64,000 nt of DNA from an uncultured Methanosarcinales archaeon (lineage in GTDB: Archaea > Nanobdellota > Nanobdellia > Woesearchaeales > SKGA01): contig CAYSFC010000001.1 in NCBI GenBank assembly GCA_964430665.1, positions 361-64,360 of the forward strand. The letters are read 5' to 3'. The notes under the pieces are model-generated. The model was given only the letters and a program-made list of their open reading frames with translations. It ran no database searches and had not been told where the DNA came from. Shown here piece by piece: positions 35,763-47,644 of this stretch (position 1 is its first letter; every line of letters begins with the position of its first letter). Both the position numbers and the translations under genes were made by a program.

Positions 35763-36170
35763 TTACTTTTTCTTTTTAACTACTCTTTTTTTAGTAGTTT
35801 TCTTTTTAGCTGGAGCTTTTTTTACTGCTTTTTTCTTTACTGCTTTCTTTTTAGCTGGAGCTTTTTTCACTGCTTTCTTAACAGTTTTTTTCTTAACAGC
35901 TTTTTTCTTTTTAGCTGGAGCTTTTTTTACTGCTTTTTTCTTTACTACTTTTTTCTTAACAGCTTTCTTCTTAACAGCTTTCTTTTTTACTGCTTTCTTT
36001 TTAGCTGGAGCTTTTTTTACTGCTTTTTTCTTTACTGCTTTCTTTTTAGCTGGAGCTTTTTTCACTGCTTTCTTAACTGCTTTTTTCTTTACTACTTTTT
36101 TTACAACTTTTTTCTTAGTAGGTTTTTTCTTTGCTACCATGAATACACACCTCGTGTAGTTTTTAACCAT
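35763..36170 (-). CDS. lysine/alanine-rich KA-repeat protein (histone H1-like / AlgP-like tail), probable DNA-binding
   Basis: about 20 consecutive (K/A/V)KKAVKK-type repeats; underlying DNA is tandemly repeated. Confidence 0.5.
   Translation of the reverse strand: MVKNYTRCVFMVAKKKPTKKKVVKKVVKKKAVKKAVKKAPAKKKAVKKKAVKKAPAKKKAVKKKAVKKKAVKKKVVKKKAVKKAPAKKKKAVKKKTVKKAVKKAPAKKKAVKKKAVKKAPAKKKTTKKRVVKKKK
35790..36120. repeat. coding tandem DNA repeats (units ~21-60 bp) underlying the KA-repeat protein
   Basis: repeated gctggagctttttttactgcttttttctttact blocks seen directly. Confidence 0.55.
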
Positions 36171-36759: not shown

Positions 36760-38361
36760 TTAGATTTGCTTAATAAATTCTTCAACTTTTTCGAGAATTA
36801 TTTTTTTTGCAGCAGGAATAAACTTAATACTTCCTGCAACATCATGACCGCCTCCAGAAATTCTAGCAAAGGAAACATTTTCTTTCAGGAATTGGACTAA
36901 TTTATTACCATCAAAACATTTTTCAGATTGGTAAACTCTATATACAATCATTGAATCACTATATGCTAAAGTAATAAATTTATTTGTAGTTGTTTCATGC
37001 TTATTATGAACAAATCCAGTAATCTTACCAATTGAGAAAAAATCGTTCCAAAGAGTTAATTTATCTGCATCTAATAGAATTATTTGGAATTTACCCCAAG
37101 ATTTTTCTTCTTTAAACTTTTCGGTTGCTAAAAATAATTCTTTTTGTGTTTCTTCCAAGTAATTTTCATATAAATTTACCAAATCTTTTTGTTTCTGAGA
37201 TGGTTTTTTCAATAAATCTTTTATTGGCAACTCACCATAAGCATATTTGGTGAAAAATACTTCAAGATTTACCATATTTCCTAATTTTTGTAAATAATCT
37301 AAAGGTTCATTGGAAAGTTGAACGAATTTTTCAAAAGGTTCTCCTTGACATTTATCTGCAACAGCACCTAAGGTTGCAGAGAAAACATCGTGATGAACTT
37401 CTTCAGTTAAATAATAAGCCAATCTAAAAGATAACATTGATGTGGAGAATTCTTTAGAAAGACCTACTAAATGAGGGTTTGAATGAGCTAATACTAATTC
37501 ACAAGTTTGAGATTTACCGTGTTCATCTAATTTTCCAGGATCGTGATGATCTACGACGACAAAGTCCGCTCCAAATATTTTTGCTTTTTTTATGGCTAAG
37601 ATATCTTCACATGTACTTCCATTATCAATTATTATTATTAGAGGAGTTTTGTTTTCAACTCTATCTAAATTTGATTGAAAAAAAGAAATATCTTTTGTAG
37701 CATCACTTATTTCATAATAAGGTGTTTTAGAAGCATTTCTGGTATAATAATTGTGTATAAATTTTAAATCTGGTTGTCTTTGTTTTATTTTATATAAAAT
37801 TGCATTTTCCAAAATATATGCACTTGCATAACCATCACAATCAGCATGATGGGACAATATTATGGGTCTTTTTTGATTTATTGCATTTAATATTTCATCA
37901 GAAACTTTTTTTAAGGAAGGTTCTAATTTTCTCCAATCTTGATGTTCAAATATATCGTTTTTATTTAAGTTTTTAACTTTTTCTATTACATTTTCTTGAA
38001 TATTTTTTTCTACTTTCTTTACATCTACTATTTGACCTTGTAATCTTCCTTCATACATTGTTTTTTTGAAAGAAAATGTAACTACACAACCTTGTTCTAT
38101 TTCAGGATATGCGCTCTGACCAGGTAAGTATTTGACTAACTGAAGTGTTTGATTTCCATCATCAACAGTAAATATAGTAACATTCTGTAATCTTACAACT
38201 TGACTAACTTTAGCTTTTAATGTATAAATAACATTTTCATCTTTATCATCCAATATATCTTTTATTTTTAACATTTCTTTGAATTTCATTTTAACCTTCT
38301 TTACATTATGTACACGAGTATTTAAATTTTTGTAAATGTTTTTCGGAATTAGTTTTTCCAA
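36760..38361 (-). CDS. DHH/DHHA1-family phosphoesterase with N-terminal OB-fold-like region (RecJ-like nuclease or nanoRNase candidate)
   Basis: DHH motif VVVDHHD, DHHA1 GGGH motif (ARISGGGHDVAG). Confidence 0.7.
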   Translation of the reverse strand: MEKLIPKNIYKNLNTRVHNVKKVKMKFKEMLKIKDILDDKDENVIYTLKAKVSQVVRLQNVTIFTVDDGNQTLQLVKYLPGQSAYPEIEQGCVVTFSFKKTMYEGRLQGQIVDVKKVEKNIQENVIEKVKNLNKNDIFEHQDWRKLEPSLKKVSDEILNAINQKRPIILSHHADCDGYASAYILENAILYKIKQRQPDLKFIHNYYTRNASKTPYYEISDATKDISFFQSNLDRVENKTPLIIIIDNGSTCEDILAIKKAKIFGADFVVVDHHDPGKLDEHGKSQTCELVLAHSNPHLVGLSKEFSTSMLSFRLAYYLTEEVHHDVFSATLGAVADKCQGEPFEKFVQLSNEPLDYLQKLGNMVNLEVFFTKYAYGELPIKDLLKKPSQKQKDLVNLYENYLEETQKELFLATEKFKEEKSWGKFQIILLDADKLTLWNDFFSIGKITGFVHNKHETTTNKFITLAYSDSMIVYRVYQSEKCFDGNKLVQFLKENVSFARISGGGHDVAGSIKFIPAAKKIILEKVEEFIKQI

Positions 38362-38612
38362 GAAGAATGACCAAAATGAATTATTAGATCTATGCCTAAT
38401 TTTTCAACGTCTGAAGGTATATCGCAAGCTCCAAAATTACTTCCAGCCCAAATCCATACTTCAACATCAATTTTACTTTCTATATCTTCTTTTAAGTTTT
38501 GGGCGAGAGGCTTTAAACCATCAGGTAATTGAATTAAGACATTTTTAGAACTATTTAGTTTAATTGTGTCGATAACTTTATCTAATTCAAAATTATAATC
38601 TTTGTAATTCAT
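38349..38612 (-). pseudogene. dph2: truncated diphthamide synthesis protein Dph2 (N-terminal 87 aa only)
   Basis: VLIQLPDGLKPLA...GSNFGACDIPSDVEKLGIDLIIHFGHSS matches the Dph2 N-terminal domain; in-frame stop after 87 aa; downstream space is taken by the DHH gene in another frame. Confidence 0.55.
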
Positions 38613-39665: not shown

Positions 39666-39738
39666 TTTTATTTTACCTTTTATTTTTTATTTGAAAAACA
39701 ATAATATTTTCTAGTAACATATTTACTAAGAAAATGAA

Positions 39739-39813
39739 TGCTCCCGCCGGGATTCGAACCCGGGTCCTCGGCGCGAAAGGCTGAGATGATTGGCCGGACT
39801 ACACCACGGAAGC
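39739..39813 (-). tRNA. tRNA-Glu (anticodon TTC)
   Basis: hand-folded cloverleaf; archaeal Glu/Asp-type D-arm GGTGTAGTCCGGCCAATCAT; anticodon loop CTTTCGC; one A-C mismatch in anticodon stem. Confidence 0.7.
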
Positions 39814-39919
39814 AGAATTGCCATTGATTTTAGTTGTTTTTTAAAATGTCGTCTCGCCCGATTCACAGTTAGATGGACTGCTACTTAGGTTTGAGTGAAA
39901 ATTGAGAAATTTTTTCCAT

Positions 39920-40189
39920 TTATAAAGGTAGTGGTTTATTTCTTCTGTAAATTTGACTAGGTGGAGCTTGTGAAGGCACACTTCCATCATAATTTTCTTG
40001 AGAATTGTGCGCAAAAGTGTAAATAGGTTCCATTATTCTTGGGAAACCTCTAGATGCCAATAATGCAAATTCTTCACTGACACCAAGATTTAACATGAAA
40101 TGTACTTTTTTTGAGCCTTCTTTTATTTCTTTCATAAAATTGTCTTTAAATAAATAATCCATTTTATCATCTTTTTTATTATATTGCAA
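39920..40189 (-). CDS. hypothetical protein
   Basis: ORF only, between tRNA genes. Confidence 0.25.
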   Translation of the reverse strand: MQYNKKDDKMDYLFKDNFMKEIKEGSKKVHFMLNLGVSEEFALLASRGFPRIMEPIYTFAHNSQENYDGSVPSQAPPSQIYRRNKPLPL

Positions 40190-40190
40190 C

Positions 40191-40308
40191 CAAAATAAAA
40201 TGTGAGCCTACGGGGATTCAACCGAACGAATTTGTAAGTGAGCGTTGTGCTGGAATAAATATGACAGCATGTTCAAATCCCAAAATAAAATGTGAGCCTA
40301 CGGGGATT
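40191..40308. repeat. 28-bp perfect direct repeat (CAAAATAAAATGTGAGCCTACGGGGATT) at 40191-40218 and 40281-40308 = duplicated tRNA-Ile 3' end plus flank, enclosing scrambled tRNA-derived fragments
   Basis: seen directly; the intervening 62 bp contains inverted copies of tRNA-Ile D/anticodon/intron segments. Confidence 0.6.
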
Positions 40309-40402
40309 TGAACCCCGGACCACTGGCTCTCTTCGAGCGACATTGCTAAAACGCAATGCTGTCATATAAGACCAGCACTCTACCAGACTAAGCTATAGGC
40401 TC
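40293..40402 (-). tRNA. tRNA-Ile (anticodon TAT) with 36-nt intron at canonical 37/38 position (intron 40329-40364)
   Basis: acceptor GAGCCUA/UAGGCUC, T-arm CGGGG-TTCAAAT-CCCCG, anticodon stem CTGGT/GCCAG, loop C-T-TAT-A then intron, A38; intron carries an internal hairpin. Confidence 0.6.
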
Positions 40403-40407
40403 AGATA

Positions 40408-40519
40408 TGCACCGACCGGGAATCGAACCCGGGCCGAAGCCTCTTTGCAAGATTGAAGATTATTAAAATTTTCTTCACATCTATGGCAAGGCCCCATTGT
40501 ACCATTCAACCACCGGTGC
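40408..40519 (-). tRNA. tRNA-Gly (anticodon GCC) with 41-nt intron at 37/38 (intron 40443-40483)
   Basis: acceptor GCACCGG/TCGGTGC, T-arm CCGGG-TTCGATT-CCCGG, anticodon stem GGGCC/GGCTT (two G-U), loop TT-GCC-A; intron hairpin GAAGA...TCTTC. Confidence 0.55.
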
Positions 40520-40611
40520 AAGACGTAGATTTAAGAGAAAGAACTTTATTTAAAAAGGTTTTGATAGATTAAAATAGTTTCATTTATAAATGTTGAATTT
40601 TTAAATAGAGT

Positions 40612-47294: not shown

Positions 47295-47421
47295 TCAAAT
47301 CGAACCTGTTTTTTCATGTGTTGTTTCTAAACTATATATCTGAAAAGTTCTTTCTTTTTTAAAGTTTTCTAATCACTGATAAATTATTTAGCTCAGATTT
47401 AAAAAAATTAAATCAAATTTA

Positions 47422-47586
47422 ATTGTGTGTTCAAATACCTAAAAATGTGGCTCTACTGGGATTCACCTGAGCAAAGCGAACGGTGTGCAGGAATAGAATG
47501 ACTAGCACAACTGAGCAAAGCGAACGGTGGACAAGAACTATAGTGATTGTGTGTTCAAATCCCTAAAATATGGCTCTACTGGGATT
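47422..47586. repeat. ~41-bp direct repeat (ATTGTGTGTTCAAAT[A/C]CCTAAAA(T)ATG[T]GGCTCTACTGGGATT) at 47422-47463 and 47546-47586 = duplicated tRNA-Arg 3' end plus flank, enclosing a decayed pseudo-tRNA with an internal 19-bp repeat (47467-47485, 47511-47529)
   Basis: seen directly. Confidence 0.6.
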
Positions 47587-47644
47587 TGAACCCAGGTTAC
47601 AAGCTCCGCAAGCTCGCGTCATGTCCAGACTAAACTATAGAGCC
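47571..47644 (-). tRNA. tRNA-Arg (anticodon GCG)
   Basis: acceptor GGCUCUA/UAGAGCC, T-arm CTGGG-TTCAAAT-CCCAG, anticodon stem CGAGC/GCTTG, loop TT-GCG-GA. Confidence 0.6.

Follow-up and report, generated by a model that had tools for sequence, protein, structure and literature searches.

A conserved non-coding insert between duplicated tRNA tails, a candidate small element directed at tRNA T arms in an archaeal genome

Behind the tRNA-Ile(UAU) gene of the 64,000-nucleotide stretch analysed here (the window; positions 361 to 64,360 of contig CAYSFC010000001.1, from an uncultured archaeon), the tail of the tRNA and its terminator are repeated perfectly around a 61-nt insert, which we call X. 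Our preferred reading, to which we give a probability of roughly 0.4, is that this block is one copy of a family of small, non-coding candidate elements that target tRNA T arms and are bracketed by a duplication of their target. X lies in the 3' flank of tRNA genes with the T arm GTTCAAATCCC. The block has a definite anatomy, belongs to a family of three related loci, is conserved far above the neutral level, is present or absent depending on the strain, and has no coding capacity. The data rule out a one-off neutral scar, and a working intron is unlikely. An earlier interpretation, made from the letters alone (the sequence-only reading), had seen in it the scar of an excision or deletion, a tandem tRNA duplication in decay, or an unrecognised element, and it is the last of these that fits best.

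The tRNA-Ile gene (40293-40402, minus strand) has a 36-nt canonical intron at position 37/38, is reported by ARAGORN with its intron search (-i) and matches Rfam RF00005 at 57.9 bits (E 2.7e-11); a motif scan found the intron compatible with a bulge-helix-bulge (BHB) splice motif. This is a functional gene, and it is its tail that is duplicated. The perfect direct repeat is 29 bp long (CCAAAATAAAATGTGAGCCTACGGGGATT) and lies at 40190-40218 and 40280-40308; a 28-mer of it occurs exactly twice, while none of 100 shuffles produced any match. Copy 1 (40280-40308, minus) consists of the 16 nt AATCCCCGTAGGCTCA, which run from T-loop position 58 to the discriminator base (tRNA positions 58-73, 40308 to 40293), and of a 13-nt trailer with an oligo-T tract, CATTTTATTTTGG (40292 to 40280), which we take to be a typical archaeal oligo-T terminator. 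The tRNA that ends in copy 1 is complete and canonical, with TTTTATTTT directly after it. Copy 2 (40190-40218, minus) is a displaced perfect duplicate of tail and terminator, 90 nt downstream, and is followed by a promoter region and an open reading frame (ORF) of 80 amino acids (aa).

X itself occupies 40219-40279. It opens with what we call the anti-T block, GGGATTTGAAC (40271-40281, minus), the exact complement of G53, the T-loop and 3 nt of the T-stem; the first two G of the block are shared with the end of copy 1, whose trailer they close. Every copy of X begins with this block, which is the family's hallmark: it was found 3' of only 3 out of 39 tRNAs surveyed, and all three carry X. The conserved core comes next (40247-40270, minus; ATGCTG-TCATATTTATTC-CAGCAC), a weak hairpin with a conserved loop of 11-12 nt; its perfect complement (12 + 7 nt) lies in the window tRNA-Ile, at the anticodon stem and the start of the intron. 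On the tRNA strand the anti-T block is followed by ATGCTGTCATAT, which complements anticodon positions 35-37 and the first nine intron nucleotides, then by TTATT, and then by CCAGCAC, which complements tRNA positions 25-31; correspondingly, all 12 nt of ATATGACAGCAT (40259-40270) recur without mismatch, in inverted orientation, at 40356-40367, and GTGCTGG stands at 40247-40253. The 3' part of X (40219-40246, minus; AACGCTCACTTACAAATTCGTTCGGTTG) is little conserved except for CGTTC and a G-rich junction that precedes copy 2, and no other source for it was found within the window. The antisense match of the spacer to the tRNA-Ile body is significant (p=0.0005). A sense alignment of the anticodon-arm/intron-start block is nearly as good (p=0.08), because this region of tRNA-Ile is itself a short inverted repeat (TGCTG...CAGCA).

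Much of this anatomy had been noticed in the sequence-only reading. Its tail duplication stands, although at 29 bp and not 28, and it had placed the true 3' end of tRNA-Ile correctly in the copy at 40280-40308. The spacer block that it described as able to pair with the T arm, GTTCAAATCCC at 40271-40281, is indeed the complement of T-loop and T-stem on the tRNA strand, and the inverted tRNA pieces that it listed are real blocks, with the qualification that inversion is unambiguous only for the T-loop block. It was mistaken in having a small ORF overlap the repeat: the TTG-start ORF (39920-40189) abuts the repeat, and gene callers use the ATG at 40162.

An assembly artefact was considered and discarded. 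The structure is identical base for base, including the tRNAs, both tail copies and X, in contigs of two other separately assembled samples (L006 and L007; related loci carry L numbers throughout), and a homologous arrangement is present in two independent assemblies of another organism (L021, L022). Tandem Repeats Finder reported nothing at the locus, because there are fewer than two full units.

Inverted blocks that are perfect (11, 12 and 7 nt), ordered as in antisense tRNA and abruptly joined are what one would expect of a neutral by-product of replication or repair, in which a fold-back or a serial template switch at a highly transcribed, palindrome-rich tRNA 3' end left a direct duplication enclosing inverted tRNA pieces, and in which gene conversion with the tRNA keeps the tail copy and the inverted blocks identical to it. 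We regard such an origin as rather unlikely, and the other loci bear on it in both directions, as set out below.

The strongest structure present is the 11-bp inverted repeat formed by the T arm and the anti-T block (z -4.4 and -6.9, the first value being that of the Ile locus). A strong conserved hairpin within X was discarded as a candidate, since folding there is only weak, and RNAalifold applied to three sequences returned a different and unconvincing structure at -4.2 kcal/mol. The ends of X are complementary only over GGGATT/AATCCC and GAAC/GTTC. The tRNA was also folded together with its downstream region, a check proposed in the sequence-only reading: the read-through RNA (40402 to 40190) is predicted to form a rod (-68.5 kcal/mol, z -4.0). 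In this rod the T-loop, the intron start and the anticodon stem would all pair with X, while the 5' acceptor strand would pair with copy 2. The 12 + 7-nt pairing of X with the 5' half of the tRNA consists of a helix, a 4x5 internal loop and a second helix, and is not a BHB.

A fuzzy search with pieces of X located a second instance in the window, behind tRNA-Arg(GCG) (X instance 47422-47586, minus; tRNA-Arg 47571-47644). Here, tail copy 1 (AATCCCAGTAGAGCCA, 47586 to 47571, minus) is followed by the trailer TATTTTA, and an anti-T block (GGGATTTGAAC, 47563 to 47553, minus) is followed by ACACAAT. The instance contains two X modules, the second of which reads TGTGCTAGTCATTCTATTCCTGCACA, and a perfect 19-nt direct repeat, CACCGTTCGCTTTGCTCAG, at 47529 to 47511 and 47485 to 47467. 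A perfect tail copy 2 (47463 to 47448, minus), with GTG before it and the trailer CATTTTTA after it, precedes a third, slightly decayed anti-T block, GGTATTTGAACACACAAT (47439 to 47429, minus). The tRNA-Arg tail is thus duplicated 123 nt downstream, within a repeat of about 42 bp that overruns by 18 nt into the beginning of X; the corresponding repeat is 29 bp long at the window Ile locus and about 25 bp in L021. At each gene the duplicated tail is that of the tRNA concerned, Ile at Ile and Arg at Arg, demonstrating that host sequence was copied and not imported.

The variable repeat lengths, the over-copying of 18 nt at Arg and the nesting of direct repeats in the Arg element, where the 19-nt repeat flanks a hairpin, all agree with a template-switching by-product. 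What such a by-product leaves unexplained is why the Arg spacer should be similar to that of Ile but not to tRNA-Arg. The window Arg spacer scores 19 against the window Ile spacer (shuffle maximum 18) and 23 against that of L021 (shuffle maximum 19), in both cases with p<=3e-4 and also when the anti-T block is left out, and no resemblance of the Arg spacer to tRNA-Arg itself was found. A profile built from four X modules recovered only tRNA-adjacent copies, in the window and in all related loci examined.

The Arg unit varies between strains. In a sister strain, represented by the Logan contig L031 (SRR29699987_357360; positions 1-80 compared with window 47421-47600), there are a few single-base differences from the window, and the sequence runs from the tRNA-Arg T-loop through one tail and trailer to GGGATTTGAACACACAAT and continues with what in the window lies beyond the third block; this contiguous single-tail reading shows that the 123-bp Arg unit is missing. 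The simplest account is a deletion between the ~42-bp repeats that left a solo anti-T block. Whatever the direction of the change, the Arg unit is dispensable and unstable, and has been gained or lost between strains. L032, which comes from the same run as the window's sample, has a further variant at the third Arg anti-T block, AGCT for AGGT.

In relatives, the gene order DHH - short Dph2-like ORF - S3Ae - tRNA-Glu - tRNA-Ile - tRNA-Gly - ABC1 is kept, with ABC1 43-50% identical to that of the window, and tRNA-Ile occurs in three states. It has no insert in L008, a second intron in the T-loop at 59/60 in L010/L011, L017, L019 and L023/L024, and a window-like architecture in L021/L022. In the last of these, 21 nt stand between the trailer of the first tail and GGGATTTGAACATGCAGTCATTTTATTCCTGCCCC...CGTTCTTCAAGG, behind which comes a second tail, AATCCTCACAGACTCATCTTTTCTT; its tRNA part differs by four GC-to-AT transitions, and its trailer is a perfect repeat. 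The window and L021 Ile spacers align with a score of 26, whereas 3000 shuffles reached at most 15 (p<=3e-4), and leaving out the anti-T block does not alter this result.

The flanking ABC1 proteins of these two genomes are only 47% identical. Between the window and L021, X reaches a z of 14.4, the tRNA introns 0.7 and 2.3, the downstream intergenic DNA 0 and the conserved ABC1 promoter 4.6, and the 5' 32 nt of X are conserved to the same degree as the tRNA exons. The stem of the core has two conserved changes (GCTG/CAGC in the window versus GCAG/CTGC in L021), with pairing retained. X of L021 no longer matches its own tRNA-Ile, and still matches X of the window. A neutral by-product accounts neither for this last point nor for conservation at z=14 between genomes whose neutral DNA is saturated. 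L021 is nearer in ABC1 to L008 (58%) and L023 (55%) than to the window, and L008 lacks X, so the distribution of X is patchy. A scan of genome contigs with the ABC1 protein gave only distant, non-syntenic relatives, and loci L028 and L029 are likewise non-syntenic.

The comparison with relatives that the sequence-only reading had in mind thus returned a small homologous insert in L021, but no occupying element in about 15 related loci. Its excision or deletion scar is largely refuted on the terms that it had itself set: L021 has the same architecture, the insert is conserved far above neutral, and the element that would have been excised is seen at none of those loci. As a separate observation on this gene, AUA is read in this organism by a tRNA-Ile with a UAU anticodon, and the gene is present in all related contigs examined; in most archaea, AUA is decoded instead by a CAU tRNA carrying agmatidine.

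Tail duplication extends beyond the X family. In the loci examined, the last 14 nt of a tRNA recur (with up to 2 mismatches) within 400 nt downstream for 8/37 tRNA genes, in ten copies, with an estimated chance rate of about 1e-3 per gene. Besides the two in the window, such copies follow Leu, Gly, Ile (two copies) and Glu in L015 and Ile and Gly in L016, and the spacers there are unrelated to X. These two loci (L015:5500-10700 and L016:2300-4400, contigs Ga0114931_...) represent a separate lineage, in which Ile has three tails in a row. The 98-nt tRNA-Gly spacer is approximately 97% identical between L015 and L016 and contains two perfect hairpins, and the second tail in each of them bears that lineage's own acceptor-stem substitutions. 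That copy 2 tracks lineage-specific changes is a prediction of gene conversion and so favours the by-product account, as does the presence of different spacers at the tRNAs of another lineage. A decaying tandem tRNA duplication, another of the earlier options, is contradicted by the spacers at L021 Ile, window Arg and L015/L016, which are unlike their cognate tRNAs, and by the likeness of the Arg spacer to the Ile spacer; a degenerate tandem copy of the whole cognate tRNA as second unit was unsupported outside the window Ile locus.

The co-variation of tail and tRNA would also fit a functional RNA. An AT-rich box in X that resembles a promoter, TCATATTTATTC, lies 32-40 nt 5' of copy 2, and from it a short RNA could run to the second terminator and include the 3'-terminal 16 nt of the tRNA; alternatively, a read-through transcript might fold with the tRNA and affect its maturation. 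The exon-like conservation of the 5' 32 nt of X, a T tract of its own after every copy 2, the lineage-specific acceptor-stem substitutions followed by copy 2 in L015 and L016, and the modelled read-through rod all speak for this. However, the unit is dispensable, being missing at tRNA-Arg of the sister strain and at tRNA-Ile of L008; neither in L021 nor at Arg does X keep its pairing with the anticodon arm and the intron; copy 2 of L021 has decayed through its four transitions; no Rfam family matches; and promoter-like AT-rich strings are frequent in a window of 28% GC. On balance we consider a functional RNA or minigene unlikely.

T-loop introns in the same tRNAs of relatives provide a further comparison. 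In tRNA-Ile(UAU) they are present at position 59/60 in L010 (4540-4680), L017, L019 and L023 (2080-2200), and in tRNA-Arg(GCG) in L008 (11007-11125) and L027 (15440-15590; L027 is on the same contig as L023). ARAGORN overlooks the genes that contain them, and a detectable tRNA is restored once the insert is deleted. The Arg intron of L027 is homologous to the Ile T-loop introns of L010, L017 and L023 (p<=0.001), whereas those of L008 Arg and L019 Ile have differing sequences and fall outside the shared family. Alignment indicates that one intron family is common to Ile and Arg in the relatives, as X is common to Ile and Arg in the window. Given that T-loop introns occur in these same two tRNAs, the T arm is a recurrent insertion site. 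Homology of X to the T-loop introns was unsupported in either orientation (p>0.04), as was the idea that these introns are decayed copies of the 3' exon (best p 0.04 and 0.06 with transition-tolerant scoring; 0.3-0.96 with plain scoring). With neither signal present, the link between X and the introns is positional only.

The window structure could nevertheless be the counterpart of these introns, i.e., a working T-loop intron or proto-intron, in which the splicing endonuclease would cut copy 1 plus X (90 nt) from a read-through transcript and T-loop positions 57-59 would be joined to copy 2. Excision of 90 nt in any register within the repeat restores the same tRNA, the orthologous Ile and Arg genes do have introns at 59/60, and the three Ile T-loop introns tested (L010, L019, L023) equal canonical introns in splice-motif geometry in the BHB scan. 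By contrast, the 90-nt reading of window Ile in the 59/60 register has 1/4 pairs in the central helix (counted by hand) and a 3' bulge of 1 nt, compared with 3-4/4 central pairs (BHB scan) for two canonical introns and the three Ile T-loop introns; a splice-register scan of window Ile did not place the 59/60 register among the top three and gave no credible BHB motif. Moreover, copy 1 is intact and has a terminator after it, so splicing is unnecessary. Together with the missing homology to the T-loop intron family and the absence of detectable decay of a 3' exon in its members, this makes the intron interpretation most improbable.

A broader version of the same connection is that tail-duplication modules are DNA-level intermediates by way of which archaeal tRNA genes gain T-loop introns and T-loop disruptions or are freed of them. 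An element would enter the T arm together with a spare 3' exon and terminator, and the outcome would depend on which tail decays: in one case an obligatory T-loop intron, in the other a gene that has no intron but has a relic downstream. In a variant, copy 2 would be an independently transcribed minigene, the source of a tRNA 3' fragment that co-evolves with the tRNA. We consider these ideas quite unlikely.

The likeness to an attachment (att) site, to which the sequence-only reading had drawn attention, is fair: the repeat runs from the T-loop past the 3' end of the tRNA, which is a typical sublocation for tRNA-targeting integrases. Integration of a virus or plasmid into the tRNA-Ile T-loop could have doubled the att core, with later near-total deletion fusing the attL and attR arms into X, and the similarity of the Ile and Arg copies could then reflect conserved arm sequences. 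However, no integrase or mobile-element gene was found between or near the repeats, and no occupied site in any relative examined. No tRNA in the window has its tail repeated at kilobase distance, and scans of viral contigs with the repeat, X, the tRNA and the spacer of the other lineage were empty or gave chance matches without tRNA context. In addition, identical shrinkage to 60-80 nt would be needed independently at two tRNAs, and a neutral remnant would not be expected to persist at z 14. A classical integrase scar is therefore very unlikely.

Several other identities were examined. For an off-target spacer integration like that of CRISPR (clustered regularly interspaced short palindromic repeat) arrays, the repeat length falls within the 24-48 bp expected; the spacers are 61-81 nt long and conserved between loci and genomes, and none of the 26 window ORFs scanned is a cas gene. 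Rfam 15 gave only tRNA and chance sub-threshold matches at the Ile, Arg and L015 loci, and nothing for the spacers. A C/D-box or H/ACA guide RNA against the T-loop was rejected on the basis of inspection, which showed no boxes, and of the missing Rfam match. No conserved ORF runs through X and the repeat, and the Arg copy has stops in all frames. A split or permuted tRNA gene was likewise rejected, given that the upstream gene is complete and that X plus copy 2 contain neither a T arm nor an acceptor 5' strand.

We return to the preferred reading, a small element directed at T arms. The first 11 nt of X exactly complement the T-loop and T-stem, and at its other end X passes into a T-loop-like GAATCCC. 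Its arrival or spread might proceed by recombination or template switching at the T arm, in an event that would duplicate the stretch of host DNA beginning at T-loop position 58 and ending shortly after the terminator, and would leave the tRNA intact. With copy 1 the gene would be complete, and judging from the layout, transcription is expected to stop mostly at the first T tract, so that X and copy 2 would be downstream passengers and no extra tRNA processing would be required. Loss would occur by recombination between the flanking repeats, which would excise the unit and would match the Arg locus of the sister strain.

A number of points weigh against this proposal. We know of no transposition or integration mechanism that yields target duplications of variable length (16-42 bp), and no integrase, transposase or recombinase was found among the 26 window ORFs scanned, of which those with Pfam matches are housekeeping genes. 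Only three X loci are available from this small survey, two of them orthologous, so movement rests on a single Ile-to-Arg relationship. The target duplication in L021 is not clean, with 21 nt between copy 1 and X in addition to the transitions in copy 2. Folding of the X hairpin is weak (z -1.7 to -2.7) and fails altogether in one module. Finally, the uneven conservation of X, strong in the 5' 32 nt and loose in the 3' half, resembles functional constraint more than a recently spread selfish element.

No known system matches in all respects. The att repeats of archaeal viruses and plasmids (SSV-type and pNOB8-type integrases) are similarly direct repeats of a tRNA 3' end that extend from the T arm past the 3' end, with the upstream copy completing a working gene and recombination between the repeats removing the insert; they differ in that the X inserts are 61-81 nt long and gene-less, with no nearby integrase and no match in viral contigs, and in that the X family sits at two tRNAs, each with its own tail duplicated, and is conserved in a distant relative. 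The T-loop (59/60) introns and the intron 'transposition' of Thermoproteales share with X the location in Ile-UAU and Arg-GCG, within 1-2 nt, and the occurrence of related copies in two different tRNAs (Ile and Arg). Unlike them, X has no credible BHB and no intron homology, stands behind a gene that is complete when unspliced, and is accompanied by a second 3' exon and terminator, a feature absent from true introns. Miniature inverted-repeat transposable elements (MITEs) and the cis-mobilisable remnants of integrative elements known from bacteria (CIMEs) are likewise short, non-coding and multi-copy, with short complementary ends (GGGATT...AATCCC in X), lie between direct repeats, show presence/absence polymorphism and may leave a solo remnant. 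The repeats around X, however, are long and variable (16-42 bp) and not a short target duplication of fixed size, its copies were found only behind tRNA genes, and no partner enzyme was found among the scanned ORFs. Duplication-inversion-duplication events attributed to fork stalling and template switching or microhomology-mediated break-induced replication (FoSTeS/MMBIR) resemble X in the direct duplication around inverted adjacent copies, the abrupt junctions and the nested repeats; such events are normally unique and neutral, whereas X is shared across loci and genomes and is conserved. In the literature searched, we found no description of a gene-less, conserved, tRNA-specific tail-duplication module.

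The window derives from scaffold_21 of ENA assembly ERZ23495300. Next to tRNA-Ile are tRNA-Gly(GCC) (40408-40520, minus), which has a 41-nt intron, and tRNA-Glu(UUC) (39738-39814, minus), both identified by the ARAGORN intron search and Rfam; the Rfam scores of the three genes are 45-58 bits. Default ARAGORN overlooks the two intron-containing genes (Gly and Ile). The protein-coding neighbours of the repeats are S3Ae, an ABC1 kinase, a DHH protein and the orphan 80-aa ORF, and the nearest named homologues of the ABC1 kinase that flanks the tRNAs come from Woesearchaeota and Nanoarchaeota genome bins.

The 80-aa ORF (39920-40162, minus) was predicted by gene callers and lies 3' of copy 2, as a neighbour outside the X element. 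It has no Pfam or PHROG family and no homologue at E<=0.001 among 1.8 billion protein representatives, and an integrase fragment was discarded as its identity on these grounds. An 81-aa ORF at the equivalent position in L008 shows visible similarity (…FALxxxxGFPxI…), and the ORF may encode a fast-evolving, lineage-specific small protein. Just 5' of the tRNA-Glu promoter, a non-coding block of about 45 nt, AGTAGCAGTCCATCTAACTGTGAATCGGGCGAGACGAC (window 39835-39900, minus), is nearly invariant in L008, L010, L017 and L023, compared with only ~50% identity of the flanking proteins; it contains a hairpin, ACAGT-N7-ACTGT, with one compensatory pair and a T tract at its end, has no match to any Rfam family, and may be a small RNA not yet described. 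Further along, an 87-aa ORF (38349-38612, minus) matches only positions 1-56 of the 302-position diphthamide synthase (Dph2) profile, and a short Dph2-like form of 86-87 aa is kept at the equivalent position in L008, L010 and L023, arguing for a conserved mini-protein and not a recent pseudogene. A 135-aa ORF (35763-36170, minus) consists almost entirely of lysine, alanine and valine repeats (AVKKAPAKKKAVKKK...) and resembles a histone-H1-like or other nucleic-acid-coating protein.

How archaeal tRNA genes gain non-canonical introns, become split or collect fragments is a long-standing question. Archaeal tRNA fragments are documented at integration borders (PMC3293823; PMC9897764; PMC3218864), and integration of mobile elements has been proposed as a source of tRNA fragments and even of introns (Sugahara et al. 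2012, PMC3293823; van der Gulik et al. 2023, PMC9897764; Chan et al. 2011, PMC3218864). This usual proposal rests on a few snapshots, and the locus family described here offers a compact and tractable case, in which a single genome has the same small element at two different tRNAs, each of them with its own tail in duplicate. On the practical side, tRNA finders and att-site searches will mistake such loci for integration scars. If the modules are neutral, they would provide a view of how template switching and gene conversion shape the flanks of tRNA genes; if they are mobile or functional, they would represent a new kind of tRNA-associated element in DPANN archaea.

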